Source of the DNA: Patescibacteria group bacterium
Lineage (GTDB): Bacteria > Patescibacteriota > Saccharimonadia > Saccharimonadales > 2-12-FULL-41-12
NCBI GenBank assembly: GCA_038064875.1
Contig: JBBTSC010000001.1
Location: forward strand, 571,004-635,003
Direction of reading: 5' to 3'
DNA length: 64,000 nucleotides
The translations under genes were made by a program, and so were the position numbers. A model generated the notes under the pieces. That model was not told the DNA's origin, made no database searches, and worked only from the letters and a program-made list of their open reading frames with translations. Numbering within the stretch: the first letter of the stretch is position 1; each line of letters opens with the position of its first letter. Shown one piece after another: positions 20,159 to 57,725 of the stretch.

Positions 20159-21181
<1,023 letters not shown>

Positions 21182-21184
21182 TCC

Positions 21185-21736
21185 ATGCCAAAAGATCTTG
21201 CTGTCAAACCAACTCCTATACCTGGATTCTTCGAAGTTGATTTAGTTGTACACGGTGACAATCGTGGCTGGTTCAAAGAAAATTATCAAAAAGCCAAGAT
21301 GGAAGCACTCGGACTCCCTGCTTTTGAAGTAATCCAAAATAATTTTTCATATAATGCCGAAGTTGGCGTTACCAGAGGGCTTCATGCGGAGCCTTGGGAG
21401 AAATTCATTTCAGTCGCTAACGGCAAAGTATTTGGTGCCTGGGTTGATCTACGCGCTGGCGAGAGCTTTGGCCAAGTCTACACTACTGAAATCACCCCTG
21501 ATAAAGCAGTATTTGTGCCAAGGGGCGTCGCAAATGCTTACCAAACTCTAGAGCCTAATATTACCTATACCTATCTTGTGAATGCTCACTGGTCTGCGGA
21601 CGCTCAGTACCTAGCAGTTAATTTGTTCGATCCAGAGTTAGGGATTAACTGGCCAATACCAAAAGACCAGGCCATTATTTCTGAAAAGGATGAGAAAAAT
21701 CCGATGCTCAAAGACGTAACACCAATGGAATTTTAA
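21185..21736 (+). CDS. rfbC: dTDP-4-dehydrorhamnose 3,5-epimerase
   Basis: RmlC cupin motifs: HGDNRGWF, RGLHAEPWEKF, VFVPRGVANAYQTL. Confidence 0.9.
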   Translation: MPKDLAVKPTPIPGFFEVDLVVHGDNRGWFKENYQKAKMEALGLPAFEVIQNNFSYNAEVGVTRGLHAEPWEKFISVANGKVFGAWVDLRAGESFGQVYTTEITPDKAVFVPRGVANAYQTLEPNITYTYLVNAHWSADAQYLAVNLFDPELGINWPIPKDQAIISEKDEKNPMLKDVTPMEF

Positions 21737-22585
21737 GTGGACTCTTCCAAATTTTTAGTCACCGGTGCCAACGGACAACTCGGTAATGCACTCAGGGCAA
21801 AATACCCGGATGCTAAGTTCGCCGATGTCAATGAACTAGATATTACTAATTCTGAGGCAGTAAATAGTTTTGACTGGTCAGGTATTACTCATATTTTAAA
21901 TGCTGCAGCCTATACCAACGTAGACGGTGCCGAGACTAACGAAGACCTTTGTATGCGTATCAATGTTGACGGTGTTAAAAATTTGGCACAAGTAGCAAGT
22001 GAATACGAGCTAACTTTGATCCATATCTCCAGCGACTACGTCTTTGACGGCACAAAGAACAACCACACTGAGCAAGAAGAGTTCACTCCCATATCTATTT
22101 ACGGCAAAAGCAAGGCCGAAGGCGACAAGCAAGCTGAATCAACAGCAAAACATTACATACTACGCACTTCTTGGGTTATCGGCGACGGACATAATTTTGT
22201 GCGAGTCATGATAGGACTAGCTGATAAGAACATTTCACCAACTGTCGTCCATGATCAGATCGGTCGCCTTACATTCACTTCAGAGCTTGTCCGAGCAATT
22301 GACCATTTGCTACAGAACAACGCACCTTTTGGCACTTACAATATCTCAAACGACGGCGAACCAGCTAGCTGGGCGGACATAACTAGAGAAATATTTAAAG
22401 ATCTTGGCAGAGATGACCTCACTGTCACCAACACAACTACCGAAGAGTATTTTGCTGGAAAAGAGAATATTGCTCCACGCCCACTGCAAAGCACCCTAAA
22501 TCTTGATAAGATAAAGGGGATTGGTTTTGAACCAAGAGACTGGAAAGAAAATCTCAAAGAATACATAGAAGGAGAAAACTCATGA
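21737..22585 (+). CDS. rfbD: dTDP-4-dehydrorhamnose reductase
   Basis: [26 protein letters not shown]; GTG start at 21737. Confidence 0.9.
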
Positions 22586-23445
22586 AAGGCATAATACTCG
22601 CAGGCGGATCAGGCACTAGGCTCTACCCTATAACCAAAGGGGTTAGTAAACAGTTAGTTCCGATCTATGACAAGCCAATGATTTATTACCCCTTGAGCAC
22701 GCTACTGCAAGCAGGAATCAAAGATATCTTGATGATAACAACCCCCCACGACAGCCAAAATTTCAAAAATCTTCTTGGTGATGGCTCAGAAATTGGTATC
22801 AACATTCAATATGCCAGCCAACCTTCTCCTGATGGACTGGCTCAGGCGTTCATCATCGGCGAAGAATTTATCGGTGATGATAGCGTTGCCTTAGTGCTCG
22901 GCGATAATATTTTTTATGGTCACAGTTTCCAGGATCAACTCAAAGAATCTGTAAATCCAGACGGCGGTGTTGTCTTTGCTTACCCAGTGTCTGACCCTGA
23001 AAGATACGGTGTTGTCGAATTTGATGAAAATATGAAAGCTCTTTCTGTTGAGGAAAAACCAGAAAATCCCAAATCTAGTTACGCAATCACCGGGCTTTAT
23101 TTTTATGATAACGATGTAGTAGAGATCGCCAAGAACGTCAAGCCGAGCGACAGAGGCGAACTCGAAATAACCTCAGTTAATGACGAATACTTGCAGAGGG
23201 GCAAACTAAAAGTTCAGATTATGGACCGCGGTGATGCATGGCTCGACACAGGTACCTTCGGCTCAATGATGGATGCCGCGCAGTACGTAGAAGTTATCGA
23301 AAAACGAACTGGTCTTAAGATCGGCTGTATCGAAGAAATTGCTTACCAGCAGGGCTTTATCAACAAAGATCAGTTGCTTAAAATAGCTGAGCCACTCAAA
23401 AAATCTGGCTACGGACACTACCTAAAAAAATTGATTGAGAAGTAG
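22582..23445 (+). CDS. rfbA: glucose-1-phosphate thymidylyltransferase
   Basis: [18 protein letters not shown]...[17 protein letters not shown] is the canonical RmlA sequence. It shares an ATGA overlap with rfbD. Confidence 0.95.
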
Positions 23446-23446: not shown

Positions 23447-26155
23447 ATGCAGAAGGTCTATGTACTTAGATCCACTCTTGTCCTTGCAATAATTACCTTA
23501 TTCCTAGGACTTTATAGCCCGGGTGCAGAAGCGGCTACTTTTACCGTCATAAATACCAACGATTCTGGTGCAGGCTCACTGCGACAAGCGATTATTGACG
23601 CCAATGCAACTGTTGGAACCGATAATATCAATTTCAGCATAGGCTCTGGCGCGCAACAAATTATACCTACCTCTGCCCTCCCTCCGATAACTCGTCCAGT
23701 AGTCATTGACGGAACTACCCAAACAGGTTTTAGTGGGACACCCTTAATAGAACTCAGTGGGAATGGTGCTGGAGCTGGCGCTCGTGGATTTTATGTGAGC
23801 GGGAACGGTGCAGGTAGCACGATAAAAGGTCTTATAATCAACAACTTTAGCTCACAAGGCATCTTTATTGATACAAGCTCAGTTACCATTGTTGGAAATT
23901 ACATTGGCACCAACGCCAGTGGTACTGCCGATGCTGGCAATGGTGGTGATGGAGTAGCTATATTCTCTGGCACATCTCTGGCCGACGCAAATAGTAATAT
24001 TGTCGGTGGCACCTCTGCTAGTGATCGTAATGTCATATCTGGAAATAACGAAAACGGTGTAGGTATAACTGCTCAAGACGGTGGCGATGCTTCAAGCAAC
24101 ACAGTCCATGGAAATTACGTCGGGACTAACGCCAGTGGCACTGGGTCTATCCCAAATACAGGAGATGGCATATTAATTAACCACGCTGGCGGGGCTTCTG
24201 CTACCTCAACGAACAACATAATAGGTGGCACCACCGGCACAACGCCAGATGGTGCCTGTACAGGTGCATGTAATTTAGTCTCTGGGAATACCGCAAATGG
24301 GATTGGTCTTTGGCACACTGGCGTCAGCGGAACAACTGTAGCCGGAAATTTCGTCGGGACTAACGCATTAGGAACTGGAGCAGTGGCAAATGGCAATATC
24401 GGAGTTGAAGTTAACGAGACAGCTAATAACACTGTTGGGGGCACAACACCAAGCGCCCGTAATATCCTCTCTGGCAATGGTGGTTCTGGAGTTTTCCTAA
24501 CAGGAGCTGCCGCTACGGGTAACGTCGTTGGAGGCAACTACGTTGGAACAAATAGCTCTGGAACTAGCGGAGTTGGCAATGTAAAAATGGGTATTGGCAT
24601 TGGAGCATCACCTGGAGCAGTAGGGGCAAACAGCAACACTATCGGTGGCACAACTGGCAACACTCCGGGCGGGGCATGCACCGGAAGTTGTAATCTGATA
24701 TCTGGAAATGGAGAAAACGGTATTTTTATATCTGGTACAGAGAGTTTTGGGAATCAGTTTGTCGGTAATTATATTGGAACAAATGCTAGTGGTACTGGGT
24801 CTATCGGTAACACTCTTGACGGAATTGGGCTTTTGAGTACTCCAAATACTATGATCGGTGGGAGCACAGCAAATGCCCGCAATGTTATTTCTGGAAATGG
24901 CGACAATGGAATTATAATTGTCAGCGGAGCTTCCACTGGTAACAGAATTGAAGGTAACTACATAGGATTGAATACTTCTGGCTCGAGTCTAGGGAACACA
25001 GATAGTGGCGTAGTTGTATCTTCAGCGACTGACACCGCAATACTGAGCAACAATATAGCTTTTAATGGCAAGCTCGGTATTGATCTTGATAACAACGGGA
25101 CTCCCAACCTCAATGATCCAAATGACACAGATAGTGGCGCCAACCGATTACAAAATTTCCCAAATATTTACGCTGTAAAAACTGTTGGATCAACAACTAA
25201 AATTGGCGGACAATTCAACGGGACTCCGAGTACAAATTTTCAGCTAGACTTTTTCTCAAGTGACGGCTGTAATGCTGGCGTTCCAAATAATTACGGCGAG
25301 GGGCAGAATTTTGTAGGTTCAACCTCAATCTCCACTGACATATTTGGCAATACTGCGTTTGGCTATACTGCACCTTCCGCTATCCCTGGAGGCAAATATG
25401 TAACTGCCACAGCTACAAAGAAGATAGGTTCAGCTCCAGCTGAGACCTCAGAATTTTCTCTTTGCATGTTAGTCAACTCTGCCAAACCCGCACTTACGAA
25501 TGGCGCTGGCTGGTTCTTAAAAAACGACCTAACAACTGGTCCCGCTGACAAGCAGTTCGGTTATGGCTTCCCTGCAACTCTGCTGATGTGTGCATGGGAT
25601 CCTAACCAACCAGGAGTTAAATTGCCAGTAGTTTACTCTGGTGGTGGCTGGTATATGAGAGCTAGTTATACCACAGGCACCGCTGATCTGAGTTTTTCAT
25701 ATGGTGGTCCTAGTTTCAAAGCAGTCTGTGGTGACTGGGACGGTGACGGAGTAGATACACCAGGAGTAGTCTCTACAGAAAGCCAATGGTTGCTTCGAAA
25801 TAGTAATAGTGGAGGTTCAGCGGATGCCGGGAATTTCCAATTTGGGCCCTTTTCTGTAACACCTGTAGCGGGTGATTGGGATGGAAATGGAACAGACACA
25901 ATCGGTGCGGTAACTTCTGGTAATCAATGGTACCTACGCAATAGCAATGATTCTGGCGGAGCAGACGGAGGCAGTCCTAGCTATGGTCACCTTCCAGGCT
26001 ATCCAATTGTAGGCGATTGGGATGGCAACGGTAGCGATACTATTGGTTCCGTAAACACTGGTGGAACATGGTCTATACGTAACGCCAACACCAGCGGTGC
26101 GCCAAATGGTGAATTTCAATACGGTTTCCCGGGCGCAATTCCTCTAATCTGGTAG
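23447..26155 (+). CDS. giant secreted right-handed beta-helix protein with C-terminal FG-GAP/VCBS-like GDWDG repeats
   Basis: Signal peptide (MQKVYVLRSTLVLAIITLFLGLYSPGAEAATF) and a CSLREA-like GSLRQAIIDAN motif. There are six GN(Y/F)(I/V)GTNASGTG turns alternating with N(V/L)(I/V)SGNxxNGI turns, followed by WxLRN...GDWDG(D/N)GxDTxG repeats. The ORF track's TTG 23435 overlaps rfbA, so ATG 23447 is preferred. Confidence 0.7.
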   Translation: MQKVYVLRSTLVLAIITLFLGLYSPGAEAATFTVINTNDSGAGSLRQAIIDANATVGTDNINFSIGSGAQQIIPTSALPPITRPVVIDGTTQTGFSGTPLIELSGNGAGAGARGFYVSGNGAGSTIKGLIINNFSSQGIFIDTSSVTIVGNYIGTNASGTADAGNGGDGVAIFSGTSLADANSNIVGGTSASDRNVISGNNENGVGITAQDGGDASSNTVHGNYVGTNASGTGSIPNTGDGILINHAGGASATSTNNIIGGTTGTTPDGACTGACNLVSGNTANGIGLWHTGVSGTTVAGNFVGTNALGTGAVANGNIGVEVNETANNTVGGTTPSARNILSGNGGSGVFLTGAAATGNVVGGNYVGTNSSGTSGVGNVKMGIGIGASPGAVGANSNTIGGTTGNTPGGACTGSCNLISGNGENGIFISGTESFGNQFVGNYIGTNASGTGSIGNTLDGIGLLSTPNTMIGGSTANARNVISGNGDNGIIIVSGASTGNRIEGNYIGLNTSGSSLGNTDSGVVVSSATDTAILSNNIAFNGKLGIDLDNNGTPNLNDPNDTDSGANRLQNFPNIYAVKTVGSTTKIGGQFNGTPSTNFQLDFFSSDGCNAGVPNNYGEGQNFVGSTSISTDIFGNTAFGYTAPSAIPGGKYVTATATKKIGSAPAETSEFSLCMLVNSAKPALTNGAGWFLKNDLTTGPADKQFGYGFPATLLMCAWDPNQPGVKLPVVYSGGGWYMRASYTTGTADLSFSYGGPSFKAVCGDWDGDGVDTPGVVSTESQWLLRNSNSGGSADAGNFQFGPFSVTPVAGDWDGNGTDTIGAVTSGNQWYLRNSNDSGGADGGSPSYGHLPGYPIVGDWDGNGSDTIGSVNTGGTWSIRNANTSGAPNGEFQYGFPGAIPLIW

Positions 26156-26159
26156 TGAC

Positions 26160-28907
26160 TTAGGGTAAGTCAGCGCCATTTGGCAAGAGATTGATCAGAT
26201 AATTTGATACAGATTGGTAGGGAGCATACGACTGGTATGTTGCATCACTCTGCACCCATCTCTTGTTGCCCCCGTCAACAACATATACATTTGGGCTCGT
26301 CCCTTTTATAGTTCGATTGATGTTTGATCCCGCTGGGATAAATGCCCACAGAGCATCAGATACTGTCGCTACATTGCTCCCGGTCTCCCAATTGCCTTGA
26401 ATTGTGCCATTGGTGAATAGCCTCTTTGCACCACTATCCAAAACTGAATCTCCACCACTAGCTTTTTTGATTATGTTCTTTGCTGTCACAGGACTACCGG
26501 CAGTAATATCTGAAGGCGATAGCAATAGCATCTGCCCGCCACTCTGATACCCATAATTGAAGACCTGGTCAGGTGAAGTCAGGTGATGCAGTTGCGCCCC
26601 TGCACTGTCTGCGATAAATATTCTCTGATCATTTGTATCAGTTGATCGAACAAATATTGTAAGTGGCGTGCTGGCCGTAACTCTCTGCATAAATGTATTA
26701 TTGAGTTCATTTGGTGAACTTGTTAGACCCCAGACGCCTGCTAGATCTGTGTTAAATGTCAGGTGTGATTTACCATCCCTAACCCAATAATATGAACTGC
26801 CTATTTTTACTTTTCTTGAAAGCGCACTTGAGCCTGAATATCGAGCAATGGTAGTTGCATTGACAGCATCAGGGCTACTCAAATTCCAGTCACTTGCAGT
26901 TGTAGTATCAACTGTATACTTGTTACCTCCAGCGACAGCATAATTAGTCCCGCCACTACTCAGGTAACTTCCGACATAACCACCATGAGTAAATTGCCCA
27001 AGCACATAATCAGATACTGATGTTATGCCCTCATTATTACTAAGTAGGCTGAGATCATATCCTGTTCTAACATGTCTGATACTACCTTGATCCATTAGAT
27101 AAACTGGCGCTGTCTGAAATCCTTTTAAGAAACTCGATGCTGTCTCGCCTGCTGGCAAAAGTGCCATTAGCTCTGCGCTAGGAGAATACACATTGCCAGA
27201 TGTTCTATACCCACTATCGAGACTTGTCGGGATCGTAATCTTTCGTCCATCCATCAGGTATAATTGGCCTGCAACATCAGCCTCAAAGGTATTGACTGCT
27301 CCCCCTGTAGTCAAGAGATTTATGTTACCTTGACTGACAACATTGACCTCAGGATTTGCACCAACACCCCACGCACGTATCAACTCAGGTGAACCAATTG
27401 CATGCTTCTGAGTATCTACCATATAGACTGTCGGTGAGCCGACATATCGAATGAAATGGCTTGCTTGAGCTGAAGGTGCAAGCCTATTAATTGTGAGGTC
27501 GGATACAGTTACTGGCGCGCCAGGATAAAGTGGAGCAACCCCAGCGGTTAGATACAGTTTTTGCCCTGCAACAACATTATATTGATTCAGACTTGATGCG
27601 CTTTTTGCCTTGGCAACAGATACCATAGAGCCAACTGTCGAAAGTTTTGCAGAGTATTCGCTCGACAAATCGACAATCTTCGGATTATCTCCTTCCCAAG
27701 CAGTCAGAACATCACCATTACCGTATTGGCGGAGAGTCCCGCCATCCATCATATATACAGCTAGATCATTGTATTTTCTCAGAGCATAGGAGAAGTTGCC
27801 TTGGTTAGTAGGCAATCGAGCCAGGTCCACTCCAACATCCGCAATTGCAGATGGGTTGAGACCCCAGGTGTTGAGCATCTCGGTAGAAGTTATGCGGTAG
27901 GCATTTCTACTATCCACAAAATACACATCCTGAGAGCCTGTTGGACGCATGAGTCGATCAAGCTGTCCAGAAGTTGGAATTGCCCCTAAAAATAGTCCCG
28001 TTGTTTGTGCTAGTGGCAACTGGTCTAATCCCCAAGCCCTAAGGATCTCTTCACTTGGAACGTGCCTCTTGACACCTTTTGTTACCACCCACTGCCTACC
28101 GTCACCATTATCGTTAAATGAAGTCATCAGAGAAAATCCTTCACCCGTGCTTGGGCCAAACCAATCGTTAAACATCCTCCAGAAATTTCGGTTACCATAC
28201 GCGCTACAACCATCTCCTGTGCCATATAGATTGGCCAGCGCAGCTGGATTCGGCTGATACGGCGTGTAGGTATAAAGTGCTATGGTTGCTCTGTTTTCTA
28301 TAAATACATTTGGCGCTCCGCAGGCTGTATTAGGATGGTATTGAACGTTGTTGTTACCAAGAGAAAATCCCTGATACTGTGCTGGGTCATTATTCATGAT
28401 CCTTCTGAACATTCGGGCTGCATAGTGTACCTGATTTGTGAACCCCTCATACTGGTCGTAACAACCATTTTGATTAGCATCTACTGCTACTGAAAGGCTT
28501 GAATCAGGACACCCAAAACCTGTGGCTTTAGTGTACTGTGTGGGTGTTGGCCAGGTATCTGTTACTAAAATTTGCTCTTTTTGGAGCAAGACCAACATTG
28601 TTTGTGGATTGATAGAAAATTCTTGTGATTTATCAAATATGATCTGGGCTGCACTCTTACCGTTCTGTGTATAATCTTTGAGACACGTGTATCCTGCCTG
28701 GCAAGTGCTGACCTTTGAGTTCAAAAATGCCTGGATAGAGCTTGCAGACATGCTGTTTTGGTTGGTGAAGGTTGAATCATCAATTAGCCGTCCAGGCTTG
28801 AAATCAGACGCATTGGCTGCCTGTGCAGGTGGTACGCTCACGGACAATGGACAAGCCAGGACAAGCAACAACAGCATTGATGCTTTGAGGATTCGACTAA
28901 TGTTCAT
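26160..28907 (-). CDS. giant secreted protein: conserved N-terminal domain + ~12 tandem degenerate modules
   Basis: Signal peptide MNISRILKASMLLLLVLACPLSVSVPPAQA. The start at ATG 28907 lies 1 nt after the upstream stop. The N-terminal block is SIQAFLNSK..C..CLKDY..SAAQIIFDKSQEFSINPQTMLVLLQKEQILVTD, followed by repeated xVY(L/M/V)(M/V)DxGxxRxIxS.E.L..WG modules. Confidence 0.65.
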   Translation of the reverse strand: MNISRILKASMLLLLVLACPLSVSVPPAQAANASDFKPGRLIDDSTFTNQNSMSASSIQAFLNSKVSTCQAGYTCLKDYTQNGKSAAQIIFDKSQEFSINPQTMLVLLQKEQILVTDTWPTPTQYTKATGFGCPDSSLSVAVDANQNGCYDQYEGFTNQVHYAARMFRRIMNNDPAQYQGFSLGNNNVQYHPNTACGAPNVFIENRATIALYTYTPYQPNPAALANLYGTGDGCSAYGNRNFWRMFNDWFGPSTGEGFSLMTSFNDNGDGRQWVVTKGVKRHVPSEEILRAWGLDQLPLAQTTGLFLGAIPTSGQLDRLMRPTGSQDVYFVDSRNAYRITSTEMLNTWGLNPSAIADVGVDLARLPTNQGNFSYALRKYNDLAVYMMDGGTLRQYGNGDVLTAWEGDNPKIVDLSSEYSAKLSTVGSMVSVAKAKSASSLNQYNVVAGQKLYLTAGVAPLYPGAPVTVSDLTINRLAPSAQASHFIRYVGSPTVYMVDTQKHAIGSPELIRAWGVGANPEVNVVSQGNINLLTTGGAVNTFEADVAGQLYLMDGRKITIPTSLDSGYRTSGNVYSPSAELMALLPAGETASSFLKGFQTAPVYLMDQGSIRHVRTGYDLSLLSNNEGITSVSDYVLGQFTHGGYVGSYLSSGGTNYAVAGGNKYTVDTTTASDWNLSSPDAVNATTIARYSGSSALSRKVKIGSSYYWVRDGKSHLTFNTDLAGVWGLTSSPNELNNTFMQRVTASTPLTIFVRSTDTNDQRIFIADSAGAQLHHLTSPDQVFNYGYQSGGQMLLLSPSDITAGSPVTAKNIIKKASGGDSVLDSGAKRLFTNGTIQGNWETGSNVATVSDALWAFIPAGSNINRTIKGTSPNVYVVDGGNKRWVQSDATYQSYAPYQSVSNYLINLLPNGADLP

Positions 28908-28908
28908 C

Positions 28909-29373
28909 TTAATTAACATTGAAAACCTTCTCCGCACTCGTATTACCGTTCTCGAGCTTTACTGATATAGTCCAGTCACCTTTTGTCGGGAGATCTTGCT
29001 TTGAGATACCAAAGCCTTCACACGCGTGATAAGAAGTGACTGGAACAAGTGGAGCTGTGCGACTAACAGTCTGAAAACCTTGTTTTCTAAATTCAATAAC
29101 ACAATTCCCCTGCGCAACGCCCTCGACCACCGTCCTCACATAAACCATACCGCCATCTTGGGACACATTGCTGATACTAACTTTGCCCTCTTCTTTGCTA
29201 ACTTCAGGATTTTTTACGTCAGGCAACCCACCTTCATCTTGTTTTTGCTCAGTAATAACACTGTCAGAAGAGGCAACTGGTGCGTTATCTTTTCTGGTAG
29301 AACTATAGGCTACTGCGCCGGCGATAACCGCGCAGATCAGAGGTACGATGACAAAGATAAGTTTTTTTTTCAT
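28909..29373 (-). CDS. small membrane-anchored/secreted protein
   Basis: MKKKLIFVIVPLICAVIAGAVAY anchor followed by a roughly 120 aa beta-rich domain. It lies directly upstream of the 925-aa gene. Confidence 0.5.
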   Translation of the reverse strand: MKKKLIFVIVPLICAVIAGAVAYSSTRKDNAPVASSDSVITEQKQDEGGLPDVKNPEVSKEEGKVSISNVSQDGGMVYVRTVVEGVAQGNCVIEFRKQGFQTVSRTAPLVPVTSYHACEGFGISKQDLPTKGDWTISVKLENGNTSAEKVFNVN

Positions 29374-29457
29374 ATTTTTATTTTAGCACTGAGTATCAAT
29401 ATTATATATGAAAATTTGCCAAATGTAAAGTGTTAGCGTGAGAAAACTTACTAAATT

Positions 29458-31524
29458 TTAAGGAGTGACGCTGACCGGCCAATAAACACCTGGTTCCGTA
29501 TTAGCCCATGTCTTATTTTCTGCAACGAGGCTAAAGAATTCATTGGCACTATATCCCGCCGTATTTGGTGCTTCTATCCAAAAACCAAAGGTTCCTATGG
29601 CCCCTGGGGCAACAGATGCTTCACTCAAAGTTCCTGGCCTATTACAGCTCAGCCAGGTCGAATCACAAACCGCACTGATTCTATCTCTTGGCCCACTCGT
29701 GGCTACTCGAAGTGGGAATGAGCCATTGTTATACCAAGTTTGATTTCCTGTATTTTTGGCCTTGATGACTACATAAACTCTCTGGCCCTGAGTTAGATTT
29801 GTTGTCGAAGCTGAGGTCGTCTGCTGATCGTCCGTGAAAATATGTTGAGCCGTTGGTTGCCAGCTGTATATTCTAGGGGTTACATTGATTGTCGTTGAAA
29901 GCATCAGGTTACGGCTAAACCATTCTCTGTTTTCGATCAGTAAATGGAAATGTTCTCTGTAGACGCCACCTGCCTCAGGTGCCGTTATGGTGAAAGGAAA
30001 CCGTCCTGTCTCTCCGGGTAATATTGTGTCTGTAGCTACCAGAGTCTTGCTATTATCTGGCTCGGTAACGACTTTGTGGGTAAACGAAACAGTTCTATTA
30101 ACTGCCCGCCAACTACCAGTTGTAGCAAAAGCACTGGGTCTGTCTCTAGGCTGATCAGTGCCCAGAACAACTGGGTTAGTGCCATAGTTACCCCAAGTGT
30201 TGTCACCCTCATTTTTGAGATCAAAATAAGCTTGCTTGGTATCGCCTGACTGCATACTCGTGCTAAACTCAAAATTACCGTCAAATCCTTGTCCTTGGTT
30301 GGTCAAATCTAGTCTATTGAGATTGGCCCTGGGTGCGTAGTAAATATCGCCAACTCTTCTTATATCACCAAGCCTGTCGTAGAGTTGCTGTCCTGGACAA
30401 GAAGTCTGACCAACATTACGATGACCTACGACATTAGGGCCATTTGAGCCTATACCTGAGGGATTAAAATAATACTTTGCAGATTTGAAGGCAATAATAT
30501 TGGCAACGGAATCTATCATACGATCACTTGGACGAACATTACTAAAATCACCGATAGTGGCAATGCCTGTGGTACCTCTATTATTTTGATACGCGTGTGC
30601 CCCTACTACATCTTTCTTTGTATTGTGAGCTACATTTGGGTCAAAGTATCTACCTTGAAAAATATTGCCATTTGAATCAACAACATAGTTGTACCCGATA
30701 TCTCCCCAGTCGTTAGTATATGTGTGAAATTGCCAGACGGCTCTCATGATTGCTGATGAATCACCTTGGCCCGTAACTGTATGGTGCACGACAGCTCGAT
30801 ATAGTCCTTCGTATTCTGCAGGCCAATAGTTCAACTCATTATTTATGCTCTCGTTGCCCCACCATTCTGCTCGGCTAATGATCCTTGGCCCGTCTGATCC
30901 GGCACTCGCAACTTTTGTAATGCCGGTTTTCTCAAGCACTTTTTCTACTATATTTTTCTTTGTTGGGGATGGGCCTCTGGTCGTATCTATCATTTGAATT
31001 GAAGTTTTTGCTAGATCCACTGCAGGAGATGGCTGGCCAGGCTGACCCTCTAACACCACCCTGTATTGTACTTTTTTGATGTTTTCATTGATAGCCAACA
31101 TCGCTCTGACAGGTTTTGAGTCATCTTTACGATCTTGTTGGTTTTCTGAATGTAGCCACTCTGACCAAGATTTGCCATTAAATGTCCTGATCTGTATTTC
31201 TACGCCTTCTCTGTCTTCATTTTGATTCCAAACTATTGCAGTAGCATTGGCATTTTTCTGCTCTGGTTCGAGTTCTTTTGATTCAAAGGTCAATTTTGTA
31301 TCTGTGCTTAGAACACTAGCTTCTTTGGAAACGTTCTGTCCTTCAACAATTCGGCCTTGCGTAACGTCGCTAATATTTGAAGTTATAATTTCTGTTTTTT
31401 GTGGACGCGTACTTAGAAATACTGCAAACACCAGTATAACCAGACAGCTCAAACTAGCAAAAACCTTAGTAGCTTTTTTGTGGGTGCGAAATCTGGTAGA
31501 AATATTTTTTATTTGTTTTTTCAT
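29458..31524 (-). CDS. N-acetylmuramoyl-L-alanine amidase (amidase_2/PGRP type) with N-terminal anchor and two C-terminal Ig-like (NBR1-FW-like) domains
   Basis: Core amidase motifs are IISRAEWWG, AVVHHTV, WGDIGYNYVVDSNGNIFQGR, VGAHAYQNNRGTTGIATIGDF and VVGHRNVGQTSCPG. Two C-terminal repeats of about 120 aa follow (N.G.NTW....PRDR.S....W...PGE...F.F...AP). Confidence 0.8.
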   Translation of the reverse strand: MKKQIKNISTRFRTHKKATKVFASLSCLVILVFAVFLSTRPQKTEIITSNISDVTQGRIVEGQNVSKEASVLSTDTKLTFESKELEPEQKNANATAIVWNQNEDREGVEIQIRTFNGKSWSEWLHSENQQDRKDDSKPVRAMLAINENIKKVQYRVVLEGQPGQPSPAVDLAKTSIQMIDTTRGPSPTKKNIVEKVLEKTGITKVASAGSDGPRIISRAEWWGNESINNELNYWPAEYEGLYRAVVHHTVTGQGDSSAIMRAVWQFHTYTNDWGDIGYNYVVDSNGNIFQGRYFDPNVAHNTKKDVVGAHAYQNNRGTTGIATIGDFSNVRPSDRMIDSVANIIAFKSAKYYFNPSGIGSNGPNVVGHRNVGQTSCPGQQLYDRLGDIRRVGDIYYAPRANLNRLDLTNQGQGFDGNFEFSTSMQSGDTKQAYFDLKNEGDNTWGNYGTNPVVLGTDQPRDRPSAFATTGSWRAVNRTVSFTHKVVTEPDNSKTLVATDTILPGETGRFPFTITAPEAGGVYREHFHLLIENREWFSRNLMLSTTINVTPRIYSWQPTAQHIFTDDQQTTSASTTNLTQGQRVYVVIKAKNTGNQTWYNNGSFPLRVATSGPRDRISAVCDSTWLSCNRPGTLSEASVAPGAIGTFGFWIEAPNTAGYSANEFFSLVAENKTWANTEPGVYWPVSVTP

Positions 31525-31652: not shown

Positions 31653-31658
31653 GTGGCT

Positions 31659-32243
31659 ATGAAGAGTTTAGATTCTGGGTCTCCTACTCCAGAAGAGATT
31701 GGCAAATTAACAGCTGAGCAAAAAGCAGTTGTTGCTTCTGAATATCTAAAAGGTGTTGAGCCAGGTTTCCTGCCCCTCCCTTTATTTAAAGAGTTATCTC
31801 GGCTGATGGTGATCAACACTGTTGAGCTAGTACTTTTGCAACCCGAAGATGATATAAGAGTATTACTAACCAAACGACCACCGACAGATCCATGGTGGGC
31901 AAATCAACTTCATATACCTGGCAGTGTGACCCTGCCGACTGACTCCGTTGAGGGTGATGATGATTTCACTGGCACTCTGAATCGTATACTCGAAGATGAG
32001 CTAGCCGGTGCTATAGAAATTGTCGGCAATGTTAACTTTTTAGAGCCACAGAGAAGAATCGGCCCCAGAGGTCACGAGGTAACCACTATCCATTGGGCAG
32101 GAGCTTCTGTCGATGAATCATTGTTGCCGAATTCCGCAAGACTATTAACACTAGAAGACTTGCAGTCTTATCAACCAGAAGCTATCGTTGACGGGACAAT
32201 TCAAACAGTCGAACGGGCTGTCCAAGCCTACGAGAACACTTGA
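31659..32243 (+). CDS. NUDIX-fold-like protein with degenerate Nudix box
   Basis: LLTKRPPTDPWWANQLHIPGSV...GTLNRILEDELAG resembles W.LPGG...REL.EE.G only loosely. The ORF track starts at GTG 31653; ATG 31659 fits the promoter geometry better. Confidence 0.4.
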   Translation: MKSLDSGSPTPEEIGKLTAEQKAVVASEYLKGVEPGFLPLPLFKELSRLMVINTVELVLLQPEDDIRVLLTKRPPTDPWWANQLHIPGSVTLPTDSVEGDDDFTGTLNRILEDELAGAIEIVGNVNFLEPQRRIGPRGHEVTTIHWAGASVDESLLPNSARLLTLEDLQSYQPEAIVDGTIQTVERAVQAYENT

Positions 32244-32247
32244 ACAA

Positions 32248-33363
32248 TTACTGCTCTTTGATACCTTTTTTTATAACATCTACGATTAATTCAATATAAT
32301 CAGCGTTCATCTCTTCTATAACAGGTAGAGACAATATACTATTCTCAACCTCTTCCGTATTCTGCAGAGAAAAGGAAGTTATCGATTTTTCAGTTATTAC
32401 TGGAATTTTATGTAGTGTTGGCGAATAATACGCTCTCGCTTGGACTCCAGCGTCGTGAAGCGCATGGAAAATCTTTTCCTTGTTTGGGACAGTCACTGAT
32501 ATAAATGCGCCTGTAGATAAAAGTACATTTTCCTGGAACTGTACGTCTTCTGTAGATAGCAGATCCTGGTATTTATTTATTATGCTTCTTCTAAGTTCAA
32601 GCCTATCAGCATATGATTCTAGTTGTCTGAGACCTATAGCACAACTCAGTTCCTGCAGTTTGGCATTTGTCCCGATCATACCGACTGTGCGATCATCGTT
32701 AAAGCCAAAATTCTGCATTTTCCGAAGTTTATCTATCAACTCTTTGCTTTTACTCACTATTAATCCGCCTTCTCCTATGGCAAAAGGTTTGGTCGCATGA
32801 AATGAAAAGACTTCGCAATCACCACGACCGCCAAGAAATTCACCATCACTATATTTCGAGCCAAATCCAGCTGCTGAGTCTATTATCAGAGGAATTTGTT
32901 TGCTTTGTGCTAGATCTTCCCACTTATCAATAGCTTTGTTGCCCACGCCAAATACATTTGGCAGTATAATTCCGGCGACATCTGTCGACTCCTTGTCAAT
33001 AAACTCTTTTGCTTGAGTGATCGAAGGTTGCCAAGAATCTTTTTCAATATCAATGAACACCGGTACAAGCCCGCTATTTATGACTACTTCTGCAACGGCA
33101 GCAAAGGTAAATGAAGGTATAATTACGTATTTTTTGTCCGGATTAGCCAGAGTTCTTAGAGCAATCTCCAGACCGAGCGTACAGTTCGCAACAGTTGTGC
33201 CATGTAAATCTTTACCGAGAAATTCGGTGGCTTTTATTGATAGTTCTCTCTCGTATGGGCCAAAATTAGTGAACCAGTTTGAGGCAATTATTTTTTTGTA
33301 ATCTTCTGCCATAACCTCAGGAGCCGGAAATACTGGCTTGATAAAAGGTATCTTATATTGCAT
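32248..33363 (-). CDS. DegT/DnrJ/EryC1-family PLP-dependent sugar aminotransferase
   Basis: IPFIKPVFP start, DSAAGFGS, and the PLP lysine context FSFHATKPFAIGEGG. The likely start is ATG 33363, 32 codons inside the track ORF, overlapping the upstream stop by 11 nt. Confidence 0.85.
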   Translation of the reverse strand: MQYKIPFIKPVFPAPEVMAEDYKKIIASNWFTNFGPYERELSIKATEFLGKDLHGTTVANCTLGLEIALRTLANPDKKYVIIPSFTFAAVAEVVINSGLVPVFIDIEKDSWQPSITQAKEFIDKESTDVAGIILPNVFGVGNKAIDKWEDLAQSKQIPLIIDSAAGFGSKYSDGEFLGGRGDCEVFSFHATKPFAIGEGGLIVSKSKELIDKLRKMQNFGFNDDRTVGMIGTNAKLQELSCAIGLRQLESYADRLELRRSIINKYQDLLSTEDVQFQENVLLSTGAFISVTVPNKEKIFHALHDAGVQARAYYSPTLHKIPVITEKSITSFSLQNTEEVENSILSLPVIEEMNADYIELIVDVIKKGIKEQ

Positions 33364-33976
33364 CGAGCCAGCCATCATTTTTAGAGACCATCTTGGCGGG
33401 CACACCCACGTACACAGAGTTTTCTTCCTCAATATCCTCGATGACAACCGCGCCAGCACCTATAACCGCACCGGGAGCGATTTTCACGCCATTTTTTATT
33501 GTTGCACCAATCCCTACAAATACTCCGTTACCGATAGTTGCCTTGCCGCCGATATGAACACCAGGGGCAAGCGTTGCGTAGTCACCAATAATCGTGTCGT
33601 GTCCTACGGTGCAACCGGTGTTGATCAAAACATGCTCGCCAACCTTTATATCAGTCGTGAGCACTGATCCAGACGCTACCAAAGTTCCAACTCCTATTTC
33701 TGTCCGAGATCCAACATCCGCATTTGCAGAAACAAGTTTGGCGTAATTGTTACCTGACCACAGATCAATAAGCTTCTTTTTAAGACGTGGCGCGCCCGCG
33801 GCGGAGAAAATAGGTGTTTGTTCTTGTTCTTCTGTAGGACTTGAGATATCTATAAGATTATCTCCATCTCCAAGATAATCTACTTCCACAGCTCGAAATT
33901 CCACTTTTAAATCAGGGAAAAAAGACTCTGTCTCGTTAGCTTGACCACCGTTTCCTAATAATCCGATACTGTTCAT
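33353..33976 (-). CDS. PglD/NeuD-like sugar N-acetyltransferase (left-handed beta-helix)
   Basis: N-terminal Rossmann-like IGLLGNGGQANE and C-terminal hexapeptide repeats (IGDYATLAPGVHIGGKATIGNGVFVGIGATI). The preferred start is ATG 33976, preceded by TAAAAT and 7 nt. Confidence 0.8.
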   Translation of the reverse strand: MNSIGLLGNGGQANETESFFPDLKVEFRAVEVDYLGDGDNLIDISSPTEEQEQTPIFSAAGAPRLKKKLIDLWSGNNYAKLVSANADVGSRTEIGVGTLVASGSVLTTDIKVGEHVLINTGCTVGHDTIIGDYATLAPGVHIGGKATIGNGVFVGIGATIKNGVKIAPGAVIGAGAVVIEDIEEENSVYVGVPAKMVSKNDGWLDAI

Positions 33977-34106
33977 TGCTAACATTTTACCGCATTTAGG
34001 GCTAATCAAGTAAGTAGTTCCGAAAAGTACCGCCCTAATGTACTTGTCAGATAAGCGCTTTTTGTTTACTAATATTAGTTGAATTTGCCCTCTTGTTGGT
34101 AAAATA

Positions 34107-35354
34107 ATGGTAAATATGCAGAATAATCAAAGATTAATTGTATTTTTAATACCTCCGCAAAAACTTGTTAACGGTGGAATAATGTCGATATTTTCAATTG
34201 CTAGAATCAGCAGACAGTTCAAAGATATTCATAAATCTGAAGTTTTACTTGCTACTTATCCTGGCGAAAAGAGCTATGGCAAGAACGATTTATTTAAAAA
34301 TAACGAAACGATTTATTCATTTGATGAAATAGTAAAAAGAGGCCCCCCGCAGTCGCTTCAAATTCATATACCAGAGTACGCTTCACATGACGTGTTCCAG
34401 GGTCTCAAAAAATATGAAGATTACCTGAGATCAATACCTGAGCTGAGCATCAACATAATGAACCAAAACATCTGGCTGATGCAGGATCCTGCTGATGTAG
34501 CGAACTGGTTCTCTCTAACGCCTGATGTAACGCAGACGATTGCCCACAAAAAGACAGCAACCCAGGAAATTGCCAATTTGTATAACTTGCCGAGTCAACA
34601 TTTGTCTGTTTTTATAGACCCGAGCCAATACAAATGGCTAGACTACGACAAAAAGGAAGACTTGATTGTACTCTCACCAGACGCCCCAGACGAAAAAGCT
34701 GAAATCGTCGACAAGATCACCAAGGCATTTCCAAGCTACAAAGTTGTCACGGTGCAGAACATGACCTACGAGGATTACAAAAGCCTTATGAGCAGAGCAA
34801 AATATACTATAACTTTCGGGGAAGGTTTTGATGGTTATTACATCGAGTCTTTCCTCTGTGGCGGTATTGCTTTTGCTGTATATAATGAGGGCTTTTTCCC
34901 AGACAAAGAATTCTCAAAATTTGAAAATTTATATTCTAGCTACAAAGATATGTCCGCCAAGATTATCCAGGATATCAAAGATCTCGACCGTAAAAATTAT
35001 GAAAAAATCGTCAAAAAGAACTTCGACAAGATAACAAAACTCTATGATTTTTCAAATTACACCAAAAACATAAAAGATTTCTATGAGAAAAAATATCATT
35101 TCGTGCCTGACCATGGCAGTTCTAAGATTTTAGCCGGTAAGATATTGCAAGCCAAAGATAAAATTATTGCTGAACAAAACGCCATCATTGCTCACAGAGA
35201 CAACCTGCTAGAACACAAAGACCGGGTTATCGCTCAAAAAGTAGAAGCCATATCCGAAAGAGACAAGACTATTGATAGCATGATTAATTCCAACAGCTGG
35301 AAAGTTACAAAACCCCTTCGCAAGATCTCAGACAGTCTGAACAAAGATAAATAA
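34107..35354 (+). CDS. divergent GT-B-like protein (EX7E motif) with C-terminal coiled coil and SNSWKVTKPLRK tail
   Basis: FGEGFDGYYIESFLCGGIAF contains E-x7-E. Residues from about 345 to 400 form heptad-like repeats (IIAEQNAIIAHRDNLLEHKDRVIAQKVEAISERDKTI). The terminal SxSW(K/R)xTxPLR motif is one I have seen at the ends of O-antigen-locus enzymes. ATG 34116 is an alternative start. Confidence 0.55.
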   Translation: MVNMQNNQRLIVFLIPPQKLVNGGIMSIFSIARISRQFKDIHKSEVLLATYPGEKSYGKNDLFKNNETIYSFDEIVKRGPPQSLQIHIPEYASHDVFQGLKKYEDYLRSIPELSINIMNQNIWLMQDPADVANWFSLTPDVTQTIAHKKTATQEIANLYNLPSQHLSVFIDPSQYKWLDYDKKEDLIVLSPDAPDEKAEIVDKITKAFPSYKVVTVQNMTYEDYKSLMSRAKYTITFGEGFDGYYIESFLCGGIAFAVYNEGFFPDKEFSKFENLYSSYKDMSAKIIQDIKDLDRKNYEKIVKKNFDKITKLYDFSNYTKNIKDFYEKKYHFVPDHGSSKILAGKILQAKDKIIAEQNAIIAHRDNLLEHKDRVIAQKVEAISERDKTIDSMINSNSWKVTKPLRKISDSLNKDK

Positions 35355-36587
35355 CTATTTTTTAGTATTCTTGGTCTCGAGCCATTCACCCTGCAGGTAG
35401 AAATCACCGTCTTGATAAATTGAACTATCGATTATCGTTATCTGTGGCGTGTCGTCAGTATACGTTTGGTCAATAATATCTATTAAATCTGGAGAGTAGC
35501 CCTCTGTGTAGATTCCGACTCCTACACTATATTCATCTTTAACGAGTTGTCCTGCCTGAACTTTGCATCGAAGCGTGTGACGCCCCACTGGCAATTTGTA
35601 ATTTTCAAGACCAAGATGCTCATTTGAATTTATCCCCGCCATATAGACACCGCTAGACCTGACAAAGAATAGATTGATTTGGAAAGCCACCGATTTGCTG
35701 ACTTCTATGTCTACATCTGCTACGATCTCATCTTTTATAGAAAATCGCTTGCTTGCCTTTCCGCCAGATTTAATCTTTATGTCTTTTATCTGAATACTCG
35801 GATTCTTAGGCCTCTCAAGTTTTTTAGATTTTGTAGAACCAGATTGATCCTCCGTATTGGCTAGCTCGTAGCGTAAGGCAATTTCCCTCGGTGTACCAAT
35901 ATCAACGATCTCGCCGTCTTGAATCATCAGAGCCCGATCACAATATTCCTGCACAGCACCCATATCATGAGTCACAAACACTACTGTCTTGCCTAATGCT
36001 TTAATGTCTCTGAAGATCTTGAAGCATTTTCTTTGGAAATTAGCGTCACCAACTGCCAGAACTTCGTCGATCAAAAGAATATCTGTCTTTGCACGTATAG
36101 CAATAGAAAATGCCAAACGGACTTGCATGCCGGACGAATAGTTTTTGAGCTTTTGATCCATAAACTTTTCTATCTCTGCAAATGCCACGATCTCGTCATA
36201 CATAGCATCCATGTCTTTTCGGGAAAAGCCGAGGAGCGCGCCGTTAAGAAATACATTCTCGCGTCCAGTAAGTTCAGGGTTGAATCCAACTCCGAGCTCG
36301 ATAAACGGAGTTAATTTACCATTTATCTTTATCAGACCACGATCCGGACTGTAGATACCAGCAAGTAGCTTGAGCAAGGTGCTTTTACCGCTACCATTAC
36401 GGCCAACTATCCCAAAAAATTCACCCTCTTTTATATCAAAAGATACATTGTTGAGAACCTTCTGTTGCTCGAAAGTACGCTTTGACCGGAAGATATTAAC
36501 AAAGGCATTCTTTACCGAACCTTGCTTTTCATGAGGAAGCTTAAATGATTTGCTGATACTCTCAACGCTGATCATTACATCTTTCAT
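35355..36587 (-). CDS. wzt: polysaccharide/teichoic-acid export ABC transporter ATP-binding protein with C-terminal glycan-binding-type extension
   Basis: Walker A GRNGSGKST, signature YSSGMQVRLAF, Walker B ILLIDEVLAVGD, plus about 160 extra C-terminal residues (Wzt_C-like). Confidence 0.9.
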   Translation of the reverse strand: MKDVMISVESISKSFKLPHEKQGSVKNAFVNIFRSKRTFEQQKVLNNVSFDIKEGEFFGIVGRNGSGKSTLLKLLAGIYSPDRGLIKINGKLTPFIELGVGFNPELTGRENVFLNGALLGFSRKDMDAMYDEIVAFAEIEKFMDQKLKNYSSGMQVRLAFSIAIRAKTDILLIDEVLAVGDANFQRKCFKIFRDIKALGKTVVFVTHDMGAVQEYCDRALMIQDGEIVDIGTPREIALRYELANTEDQSGSTKSKKLERPKNPSIQIKDIKIKSGGKASKRFSIKDEIVADVDIEVSKSVAFQINLFFVRSSGVYMAGINSNEHLGLENYKLPVGRHTLRCKVQAGQLVKDEYSVGVGIYTEGYSPDLIDIIDQTYTDDTPQITIIDSSIYQDGDFYLQGEWLETKNTKK

Positions 36588-37397
36588 CTACAAATTCTCC
36601 GCAAACGATTTAGCATTTTTTCTAAAATAAAGCACCCCACCGATAAGTACAAATATGCAGATACCGACCGGGATAATGCGGTAGTAAGCGTGCCCAAAAA
36701 CTTGAGTTGTTGTCAGTGTCTGGTGAGTTACTAAGGCGTAGCGACCATCTTGTATCGCTTGAGCTACTGGATTGATCAACAATATTTTTTGATAATCTAC
36801 GTTAGTTATCAGTGTCAAAGGATACAGTATCGGTGTTACGTAAAATCCTGCCTGCAAAACTAATTCCCAAATATAACTTATGTCTCGGTACTTCACAAAA
36901 GATGCTGACAAGAAAAGAGCAAGCCCAAGACCAAAGATATAGATTTCTATAAGTACTAGCGGGAACCACAAACTTGTTTCTAATAGATCGACTTTGTTGA
37001 AATACATAAATACAAGCACAACCAATAGGTTAAGTCCGAGATTTATGATCGCAGATACACTAGTAGAAAGCACAATTATCCAGCGCGGAATCCGAATTTT
37101 ACGGATCAGATCACCCCGACCAACAACAGAGCCAAGACCCTGACTAGTAATATCAGCAAAAAAGGTCCACAGCACAATTCCCAAAAGCAAATATATCGGG
37201 AAATGTGGCACATCACCGCCCAGTCGCAGGAACTTTACAAAGACAATATAGAGGATCAAGAACATCACAAGAGGCCGAAGCAACGACCATGCATAACCCA
37301 GTATTGAACCCTGATAACGTAATTTAAATTCGGTTCTAACTAATTCTCCGAGTAATACTTTGTTCTCTTTTGAAAAAACTTTTTTAAGTTTATTCAT
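36588..37397 (-). CDS. wzm: ABC-2 type polysaccharide export permease
   Basis: Six TM helices and an ABC-2 N-terminal pattern (LVRTEFKLRYQGSILGYAWSLLRPL). It abuts wzt with no gap. Confidence 0.85.
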   Translation of the reverse strand: MNKLKKVFSKENKVLLGELVRTEFKLRYQGSILGYAWSLLRPLVMFLILYIVFVKFLRLGGDVPHFPIYLLLGIVLWTFFADITSQGLGSVVGRGDLIRKIRIPRWIIVLSTSVSAIINLGLNLLVVLVFMYFNKVDLLETSLWFPLVLIEIYIFGLGLALFLSASFVKYRDISYIWELVLQAGFYVTPILYPLTLITNVDYQKILLINPVAQAIQDGRYALVTHQTLTTTQVFGHAYYRIIPVGICIFVLIGGVLYFRKNAKSFAENL

Positions 37398-57696: not shown

Positions 57697-57725
57697 TAGA
57701 CGGGCCAAGGCGTTATAATATAAAC

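Follow-up and report, generated by a model that had tools for sequence, protein, structure and literature searches.

A secreted protein with a putative lysozyme-like domain, encoded with wall-polysaccharide exporters in Saccharibacteria and Actinobacteria

Why would the wall-glycopolymer locus of a Saccharibacterium encode four exported or membrane-anchored proteins, three of them very large, between its rhamnose genes and its amino-sugar genes? We considered this question for a stretch of 64,000 nucleotides (the window) from contig JBBTSC010000001.1 of a Saccharimonadales genome (GCA_038064875.1; contig positions 571,004 to 635,003). The source is a Hainich groundwater metagenome (0.1-µm filter; ENA ERZ1292627), and the homologues of the window's proteins carry the names Candidatus Saccharibacteria or Saccharimonadales. 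A reading of the sequence alone had taken the four genes, which we will call P1 to P4, for an island that splits the locus. It had proposed that they encode either host- or prey-interaction factors or wall-remodelling machinery tied to the cell's own surface glycan. We found that P1, P2, and P3 are long-standing members of the rhamnose wall-polysaccharide locus. Furthermore, structural models suggest that P2 probably represents a new type of enzyme that cuts the wall as lysozymes do, with its putative catalytic site in an N-terminal domain (P2N).

The four genes and their place in the locus

The genes and their immediate neighbors are as follows (positions within the window).

20186..23445, + strand: rmlB-rmlC-rmlD-rmlA operon for dTDP-rhamnose synthesis (Pfam and gene list)
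23447..26155, + strand: P1, 902 amino acids (open reading frame, or ORF, and translation)
26160..28919, - strand: P2, 919 amino acids from the ATG at 28919, as called in the source contig (915 amino acids from the second ATG, at 28907)
28909..29373, - strand: P3, 154 amino acids (ORF and translation)
29458..31524, - strand: P4, 688 amino acids (ORF and translation)
31653..35354, both strands: variable block between P4 and the exporter, with a NUDIX gene (+), a DegT aminotransferase (-), a hexapeptide acyltransferase (-), and an ORF of 415 amino acids, orf415 (+) (Pfam)
35355..39445, - strand: a bifunctional GT2+GT4 glycosyltransferase (682 amino acids), Wzm (ABC-2 permease), and Wzt (ATPase) (gene table and synteny)

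The four genes are real, each with homologues that number in the hundreds to thousands, and none of them has a paralogue elsewhere in the window. Their ORFs, export signals, and flanks are as the sequence-only reading described them. Read from the sequence, P1 and P2 have cleavable Sec signals: ...SPGAEA followed by AT in P1 (amino acids 1–29, 23447–23533) and ...PPAQA followed by AN in P2. The junctions were described correctly as well. The convergent stop codons of P1 and P2, at 26155 and 26160, are 4 nt apart, and if P2 starts at 28907, then it is separated from P3 (28909) by 1 nt. The size given for P4 was right, the 903 amino acids given for P1 had counted the stop codon, and the 915 given for P2 correspond to the second ATG. 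Also as described, none of the four matches a family of cytoplasmic biosynthetic enzymes.

According to Pfam scans and the gene table, these genes belong to one long locus for a wall glycopolymer, which extends over roughly 9.4–47 kb of the window. From what is established about Rml, Wzm/Wzt, and phosphoglycosyl transferases, we infer that the locus encodes a pathway for a rhamnose-containing polymer that is exported by an ATP-binding cassette (ABC) transporter.

The idea of an island did not hold up. The GC content at third codon positions (GC3) is 0.357–0.387 for P1–P4, versus 0.392 ± 0.049 for the other 46 ORFs. Distances in relative synonymous codon usage are 0.29–0.34 for the three large genes and 0.61 for the short P3, which is within the range of ORFs of similar size. 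By either measure, P1–P4 are indistinguishable from the other ORFs. (The slightly higher total GC of P1 plausibly reflects its Gly/Ala-rich composition, because its GC3 is not raised.)

We also compared gene context in related loci, with orthology confirmed by tblastn. In 7/7 Saccharimonadales contexts, P3 is directly upstream of the P2 orthologue, and the pair lies in a glycosyltransferase-Wzm-Wzt exporter locus, usually closing the operon at its 3' end. The glycosyltransferase, Wzm, and Wzt genes form the conserved upstream portion of this operon. In L088 and L091, P3-P2 closes the exporter operon directly and on the same strand, and in three further species representatives (L003–L005), a full-length P2 comes right after the exporter. 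P1 is in the glycopolymer locus in 6/8 contexts. It is directly 3' of rmlA in L085, L086, and L090, and one small ORF away from rmlA in L082; in the window, the ATG of P1 is 1 nt downstream of the rmlA stop codon (23443–23445). The layouts are:

L086: rmlBCDA, then P1, convergent with P3-P2, which are preceded on their strand by GT682, Wzm, Wzt, and a methyltransferase; this is the window's layout minus P4, NUDIX, DegT, the hexapeptide transferase, and orf415
L090: rmlB-NUDIX-rmlC-rmlD-rmlA, P1, P3, P2, and a glycosyltransferase (GT) on one strand, convergent with a 288-amino-acid ORF-Wzt-Wzm-GT698
L084/L085: DUF2142, P1, P3, P2, Wzt-Wzm-GT698
L082: GT-Wzm-Wzt, orf415, DegT, ATP-grasp, methyltransferase, P3, P2, P1, rmlADCB
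L088: GT-Wzm-Wzt-methyltransferase-P3-P2, with P1 not there
L091: GT-Wzm-Wzt-WsaF-P3-P2, with P1 not there
L083: P1 amid NUDIX, rml, GtrA, and DUF2142 genes
L087, L089: P1 elsewhere (in L087, next to a gene for a class A penicillin-binding protein)

Because GC3 and codon usage match the flanks, and because of this synteny, we reject a horizontally acquired foreign island as the explanation for P1–P4. What does vary is P4, which is absent from all 9 related loci that we fetched by gene context (L082–L091). P4 is a lineage-specific addition and the sole variable member of the four. The variable part of the window is the block from P4 to orf415, because P3-P2 is fixed in relatives and the block is inserted between Wzt and P3. 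The part of it between P4 and the exporter is different or missing in L086, L088, L090, and L091 and is partly retained in L082.

P2 and its N-terminal domain

P2 belongs to a family with over 3,300 matches, and its orthologues have about 900–950 amino acids. Its ATG at 28919 has a Shine-Dalgarno sequence (GGAGAAGG) 7 nt upstream and overlaps P3, up to the P3 stop codon, by 11 nt; the same overlap recurs in the relative L082. The parts of P2 are:

28818..28919, - strand: signal peptide, amino acids 1–34, with cleavage predicted after AQA; the start is preceded by GGAGAAGG
28134..28817, - strand: P2N, amino acids 35–262 (about 230 amino acids), a Cys-rich, mainly helical domain of an unannotated family
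26160..28133, - strand: repeat region, amino acids 263–919 plus the stop codon, about 12 tandem repeats of about 55 amino acids, each with three strands and a helix

P2 has no match in Pfam or NCBIfam, ten of its homologues have no Pfam match over the N-terminal domain, and comparison of P2 or P2N to PDB sequences found nothing relevant, even by profile search. (NCBIfam has no family for P1, P3, or P4 either.) All named homologues of P2N are “hypothetical” or are named for their repeats. Yet the family is large, with 3,910 clusters at 50% identity (E ≤ 1e-3), and it is highly constrained. The invariant columns are K-E in LLQKEQ, C-P-D of CPD, YTPY-P of YTPYQP, and four cysteines; with two more cysteines that are kept in at least 90% of sequences, there are six conserved cysteines. 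(A DsbA-like protein is encoded in the window.) The glutamate of LLQKEQ, E115, is invariant in all three of our alignments (A1–A3, with 26, 20, and 25 sequences).

When modelled alone with AlphaFold, P2N gave a mean predicted local distance difference test score (pLDDT) of 89.7 and a predicted TM-score of 0.88. Among its top 50 Foldseek matches in the PDB, 47 are lysozyme-superfamily enzymes or phage virion proteins, the latter presumably bearing lytic domains. The matches include AtlE (probability 0.97), Acp, LytB, and Atl from glycoside hydrolase family 73 (GH73); goose lysozyme (g-lysozyme), MltC/E/F, Slt, Tse3, and phage lysins from GH23; and SltB from GH103. Independently, in the viral library BFVD, P2N matched SLT/GEWL transglycosylases, glucosaminidases, and tail lysins. 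In GH23 and GH73 enzymes, the catalytic glutamate is at the end of a helix; E115, which terminates helix 76–87 of the P2N model, is a candidate equivalent. We conclude that P2N probably has a lysozyme-superfamily-like fold. This is probable rather than proven because every individual match is weak (E ≥ 0.02, TM-score ≤ 0.43).

The GH73 N-acetylglucosaminidases (S. aureus AtlE, C. perfringens Acp, and pneumococcal LytB) and the GH23 transglycosylases and goose-type lysozymes are thus the best, and almost the sole, structural neighbors of P2N. P2N would have in common with them a helical lysozyme-type domain and a glutamate at a helix end, and they too are modular, being combined with wall-binding repeats. 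In contrast, P2N has three conserved pairs of cysteines and the motifs CPD and YTPYQP, which to our knowledge are not features of GH73 or GH23.

Elsewhere, P2N is fused to EccB-like repeats, LGFP, FW, VCBS, ricin, DUF5648, or CARDB domains. By analogy to autolysins, this is the pattern of a putative catalytic domain that is served by interchangeable wall-targeting modules. Some proteins of 800–1,100 amino acids (P0021, P0361, and P0362) match P2N in 6–8 stretches, so that a single polypeptide may carry the putative catalytic domain several times in tandem. We also noticed 2–4 copies of the Nbr1-FW module, the one that ends P4, directly after P2N in at least 11 Saccharibacteria loci (L009, L018, L032, L035, L039, L046, L047, L050, L055, L064, and L076) and a P4-like amidase gene next to the P2N gene in L055, L063, and L076 (L055 is from bin H51, and the window's source sample is Hain_H51). 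In an Agromyces genome, P2N and a PLL domain occur in one protein (L024, 9962..12958). The same kind of locus can also encode a CHAP peptidase fused to a PLL/Tectonin-type beta-propeller (L091, 16016..17440, - strand). We considered a prophage or plasmid origin for P2N, or a recognizable phage endolysin domain, and dropped these ideas after finding no homologue in phage and plasmid collections.

When modelled in full with AlphaFold (pLDDT 85, and above 90 over most of the repeat region), P2 shows a helical N-terminal domain followed by the roughly 12 repeats. In Foldseek searches of the PDB, the modelled repeats matched EccB1, EccB3, and EccB5 (E = 2.5e-6 to 2e-3), so they are predicted to have an EccB-type repeat fold. 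The EccB family (PF05108) was also among the precomputed annotations for 24 of the 120 P2 homologues listed, as sub-threshold matches. EccB of the mycobacterial ESX type VII secretion systems (PDB 4kk7 and 7nps) resembles P2 in this fold of about 55 amino acids (E = 2.5e-6) and in its expected location, the wall compartment of an envelope of the monoderm or actinobacterial type. But EccB has four repeats around a central domain and a transmembrane helix, while P2 has about 12 tandem repeats and a cleaved signal and lacks the overall shape of EccB. The likeness is confined to the level of the repeats (TM-scores of 0.07–0.16). So we ruled out that P2 is EccB or another core component of a type VII system. 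Among the window's annotated ORFs, general Pfam scans found no EccC, EccD, or WXG100 partners.

P3 has an N-terminal hydrophobic membrane anchor, a low-complexity linker, and a C-terminal domain of about 85 amino acids with cysteines and a GxW motif. It evolves quickly (19–38% identity in alignment A4). P3 may be a membrane-tethered partner or regulator of P2.

A search of GTDB species genomes with the P2 family alignment returned 80 loci (L002–L081), most of which match only the N-terminal 230 amino acids (P2N), and 25 of which are actinobacterial (Microbacteriaceae, Demequina, and Isoptericola). Of the 48 loci whose 10-kb flanks are complete, 37 have an ABC-2 exporter no more than 10 kb from the P2N gene: 17/21 in Actinobacteria and 20/27 in the Candidate Phyla Radiation (CPR). 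The median distance is about 4 kb, and rml genes are frequent too. For genomes of 1–4 Mb with a few such exporters, we would expect a few percent by chance.

In the cultured actinobacterium Humidisolicoccus flavus (Microbacteriaceae), the gene order is GT (1,068 amino acids)-Wzm-Wzt (with Wzt_C)-GT2-P2 homologue, and then come an epimerase gene and two genes for Wzy_C proteins. The P2 homologue (933 amino acids) is built like P2, from a signal peptide, the P2N domain, and repeats of the same kind; it is 37% identical to P2 over amino acids 4–404, and the repeats align further along. Thus, a free-living actinobacterium keeps a P2 homologue at the equivalent position in the locus.

P2N is about as similar to the window's copy in Actinobacteria (median identity 46%) as in CPR (47%). 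In contrast, identity drops from 50% in CPR to 30% in Actinobacteria for the adjacent Wzm and from 59% to 46% for Wzt. In a crude neighbor-joining tree, most actinobacterial P2N sequences are nested within the diversity of CPR; this is a lead only, because the tree has no support values. The flat similarity could be due to genes passing between the epibiont and host phyla, or to constrained positions that have reached a plateau.

The Saccharibacteria in cultivation live as epibionts on Actinobacteria. The four proteins could be directed at a host or prey: they might be adhesins, or lytic enzymes for the actinobacterial host's wall, perhaps acquired from the host. Both the flat similarity of P2N and the nesting are compatible with transfer between host and epibiont. 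Also, attachment of the Saccharibacterium TM7x is blocked by rhamnose and depends on a wall polysaccharide of the host (PMC11623550). In S. epibionticum, essential envelope proteins with glycan-binding domains have been proposed to target the host; the essential envelope proteins from transposon sequencing include VCBS and FnIII proteins, which could not be mapped to P1 or P2 (PMC10633639).

A possible role in wall remodelling

P4 has a single N-terminal hydrophobic signal anchor, a stretch without an assigned domain (amino acids 45–240), an Amidase_2 domain (amino acids 244–379; 30388–30795), and two C-terminal Nbr1-FW (N_BRCA1_IG) domains (amino acids 420–543 and 553–688; 29461–30267). The description of P4 as an amidase was borne out: the match to Amidase_2 (PF01510) has E = 1.6e-14 and 54.8 bits, versus a cut-off of 26. 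FW (PF16158) matches in two stretches, with E = 5e-9 and 37 bits, versus a cut-off of 28. By inspection of the protein's residues, P4 keeps the HH...H...C pattern, in the motifs VVHHTV and GHRNVGQTSCPG, which we take to hold the zinc ligands, as in other Amidase_2 proteins. P4 resembles Amidase_2 autolysins (of the peptidoglycan-recognition-protein or T7-lysozyme type) in its His/His/Cys pattern and in having a catalytic domain followed by targeting repeats. It differs from the usual ones in being targeted by a pair of Nbr1-FW domains and in its N-terminal helix anchor and 200-amino-acid region without an assigned domain.

P1 is harder to interpret. It has a Gly/Asn-rich region at about amino acids 30–560 that looks like a right-handed beta-helix, then a middle region, and then four FG-GAP-like repeats (GDWDGxG; about amino acids 681–902, 25487–26152). 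The claim that P1 is a beta-helix protein is weakly supported for the window's copy, which scores 13.2 bits against PF13229 (cut-off 25.9) and is also below threshold for PF13517, and is better supported for its homologues, which have precomputed matches to PF13229 or PF05048. Neither the single sequence nor the family profile has a relevant match among sequences of solved structures in the PDB. The C-terminal repeats of P1 are not similar to the PLL/Tectonin-CHAP protein of L091. Orthologues of P1, including GII36_05735 of Ca. Mycosynbacter amalyticus, have about 880–915 amino acids and are 47–72% identical, with 49–72% identity across the full length of the family. Within the same genome, P1 is more conserved than P2 (63% vs. 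37% in L086, 49% vs. 32% in L084). Because of this, and because of the high full-length identity, we disfavor a rapidly diversifying adhesin. We guess that P1 binds or trims a polysaccharide, given the class of its fold and the way it is coupled to rmlA; this is our least certain assignment.

We propose that these genes are the extracytoplasmic, wall-acting part of the locus: a wall-remodelling (autolysin) module that is co-encoded with the organism's own wall glycopolymer. We give this proposal a probability of about 0.55. In our proposal, P3 and P2 would be co-transcribed and translationally coupled, and P2 would be exported by Sec. The EccB-type repeats would keep P2 in the wall by attaching to peptidoglycan or to the rhamnose polymer that the neighboring genes produce. 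The lysozyme-like P2N, with E115 as the proposed catalytic acid, would cut glycan strands of the sacculus, which would let wall that bears the glycopolymer be inserted, remodelled, or turned over. P3 would be the membrane-anchored partner that positions or restrains P2, and P4 would be an accessory, membrane-tethered zinc N-acetylmuramoyl-L-alanine amidase that is targeted by its two FW domains. P1 would be a secreted beta-helix protein, coupled to rmlA, that most likely binds or trims polysaccharide. The wall-remodelling half of the sequence-only reading is thus favored, by the synteny of P3-P2 with the exporter, the fold matches of P2N, and the amidase P4.

The arrangement of P2 seems analogous to that of EpaU (AtlE) of Enterococcus faecalis, which is an autolysin encoded within the gene cluster for the rhamnopolysaccharide EPA and whose wall-binding domain recognizes EPA (PMC13343894). 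The gene for EpaU, like that for the putative hydrolase P2, lies inside a rhamnose wall-polysaccharide cluster. P2 would likewise combine a catalytic domain with repeats that bind the wall and the cluster's own polymer, and would act in wall remodelling. However, EpaU acts as an N-acetylmuramidase and is not detectably related to P2N, nor are EccB-type repeats related to its wall-binding domain. Also, EpaU is in the variable part of the EPA cluster, while P3-P2 is a conserved end of the exporter operon that is common to two phyla.

Several observations weigh against our proposal. No single structural match between P2N and a lysozyme is significant (the best have E = 0.02–0.04 and TM-scores of 0.25–0.43), and at the level of sequence P2N resembles no GH family, Pfam model, or solved structure, so that its hydrolase activity is a fold-level inference. 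Nor did the phage and plasmid collections contain homologues of P2N. The link between paralogous P2N genes and the exporter is at the level of the locus, not the operon. The paper on the structure of EccB1 likened its repeats to the wall-binding protein PlyCB and suggested that they bind peptidoglycan, as it says itself without experimental support (PMC4769845). For P1, the fold class is all that points to a function, and 2/8 of its homologues are outside the locus. And the substrate of P2N could be the glycopolymer instead of peptidoglycan.

This last possibility is the strongest of the alternatives. P2N might act on the glycopolymer or on its lipid-linked precursor, as an endoglycosidase or transglycosylase that controls chain length, release, or transfer to the wall, which would make it a late enzyme of the pathway. 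This would fit with the operon-level coupling of full-length orthologues to Wzm/Wzt and with an exporter link that spans two phyla. Furthermore, Pfam annotation found no ligase of the LytR-CpsA-Psr (LCP) type among the window's annotated ORFs, and the lysozyme fold also supports transglycosylation chemistry. However, the structural neighbors of P2N are all active on peptidoglycan, except for one GH23 chitinase, and many paralogues are several kb from the exporter. Also, because the identity of P2N stays at about 46–47% across lineages with differing sets of glycosyltransferases, an invariant substrate such as peptidoglycan fits better. We consider a polymer-acting P2N to be unlikely.

A bolder version of our own proposal seems less likely still. 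P3-P2 might be an unrecognised and near-obligatory extracytoplasmic component of the assembly of Wzm/Wzt-exported wall polysaccharides, in both Saccharibacteria and Micrococcales. A new lysozyme-fold family would then open or re-ligate peptidoglycan so that the polymer can be threaded and attached, either partnering with LCP ligases or substituting for them. The catalytic domain might even have been exchanged between epibiont and host, because P2N is equally similar within and between phyla and the neighboring transporter is not.

It is improbable that P1, P2, or both form a structural, non-catalytic coat, like a surface layer (S-layer), that is held non-covalently on the glycopolymer. Both proteins are large, secreted, repeat-rich, and co-encoded with the polymer. 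In Firmicutes, S-layer or Cwp genes sit beside loci for secondary wall polymers; beta-helix/CASH domains are present in archaeal surface-layer proteins; and groundwater CPR cells reportedly have S-layers. (We found nothing specific in the literature on S-layer or beta-helix proteins of Saccharibacteria.) But the invariant polar glutamate motif and the conserved cleft-type fold predicted for P2N are typical of enzymes, and P2N is swapped among many binding modules in the style of a catalytic domain. Also, P1 is 49–72% identical across the order, which would be unusually conserved for an S-layer protein.

Host- or prey-directed factors are the least probable explanation, and this part of the sequence-only reading is largely unsupported for P2 because the free-living H. 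flavus keeps a full-length homologue, with equivalent architecture, at an equivalent place. The proximity of P2N genes to ABC-2 exporters in most of the fully flanked actinobacterial and CPR loci speaks against it too. In addition, the anchors of P3 and P4 tie them to the membrane of the cell that makes them, P3-P2 is in one operon with that cell's exporter, the composition has no sign of recent acquisition, and the proteins show high conservation and not diversifying variability.

The region is ordinary in kind, in that probable autolysins are encoded in a wall-polysaccharide locus. It does encode an uncharacterised, probably catalytic domain family that is tied to Wzm/Wzt across two phyla. 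How CPR bacteria such as Saccharibacteria build and remodel their envelopes is almost uncharted, although it is through the envelope that these epibionts meet their hosts. P2N is a candidate enzyme family that is genomically tied to exporters of rhamnose wall polysaccharides, in Saccharibacteria as well as in the phylum that usually hosts them. Because full-length homologues exist in cultured Microbacteriaceae, the function of P2N is open to genetics and biochemistry without culturing CPR. Should the fold assignment be wrong, P2N would nonetheless be a conserved, uncharacterised family of wall-polysaccharide loci that merits a structure. For annotation, large secreted proteins in the glycan loci of CPR should not be presumed to be host-interaction islands.

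Other genes of the locus

The locus begins with UppP, GtrA, a priming Bac_transf, a GT4, GlmS, and a nucleotidyltransferase, followed by an ATP-citrate-lyase-like pair, a phosphoglucomutase/phosphomannomutase, ManC, RmlBCDA, and P1 to P4. After P4 come the NUDIX, DegT, and hexapeptide acyltransferase genes and the unannotated orf415, and then Wzt, Wzm, the 682-amino-acid GT2+GT4 protein, a GT2, two epimerases, and a Wzy_C protein. The locus ends with a 163-amino-acid ORF and a 936-amino-acid GDSL/SGNH protein, and then another GT4.

NUDIX genes recur in or beside the rml and glycopolymer genes: at 31653..32243 (+) in the window, at 7103..8725 in L083 (three in tandem), at 7146..7670 in L090 (between rmlB and rmlC), and at 12945..13469 in L089. 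The DegT and hexapeptide-transferase genes overlap by 107 nt if the longest ORFs are taken (32248..33459 and 33353..34009, both on the - strand); their start coordinates are uncertain, because the gene caller for the source contig took later starts (376 and 210 amino acids). orf415 (34107..35354, +) is on the opposite strand from the adjoining Wzt and has no match in Pfam or NCBIfam, but L082 (51% identity) and L019 (48%) have conserved counterparts.

The ATP-citrate-lyase or succinyl-CoA-ligase-like pair (14795..17745, - strand; Citrate_bind, Citrate_synth_N, Ligase_CoA, and Citrate_synt) is beside the same locus in two relatives, L090 (22476..) and L091 (1871..3789). It is odd given the reduced central metabolism; it might supply acyl groups for decoration of the polymer.

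The locus has a second pair of a small ORF and a giant exported protein (43879..44370 and 44367..47177, - strand). The 163-amino-acid ORF, which has no Pfam match and no similarity to P3, overlaps the gene for the GDSL/SGNH hydrolase by 4 nt. Large GDSL proteins flank the locus in L088 (909 amino acids) and L089 too.

A scan for terminators gave counts no higher than in shuffled sequence. Promoter-like sites are in modest excess, with 37 in the region versus a shuffled mean of 28.0 (standard deviation 5.4), and two of them fall in intergenic gaps. One is in the 84-nt gap between P4 and P3, as judged from its match to the consensus:

29401..29429, - strand: promoter-like TTTACA-17-TATAAT, 11/12 matches

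Just after the glycopolymer locus are type IV pilin-like genes with the N_methyl motif (49011..52796 and 55025..58742, both on the + strand), one of which carries a CarboxypepD_reg/SpaA-like domain. Jag, YidC, dnaA, dnaN, and recF are downstream of these. Because those genes follow it, the envelope locus is about 10–45 kb from the presumed origin of replication.

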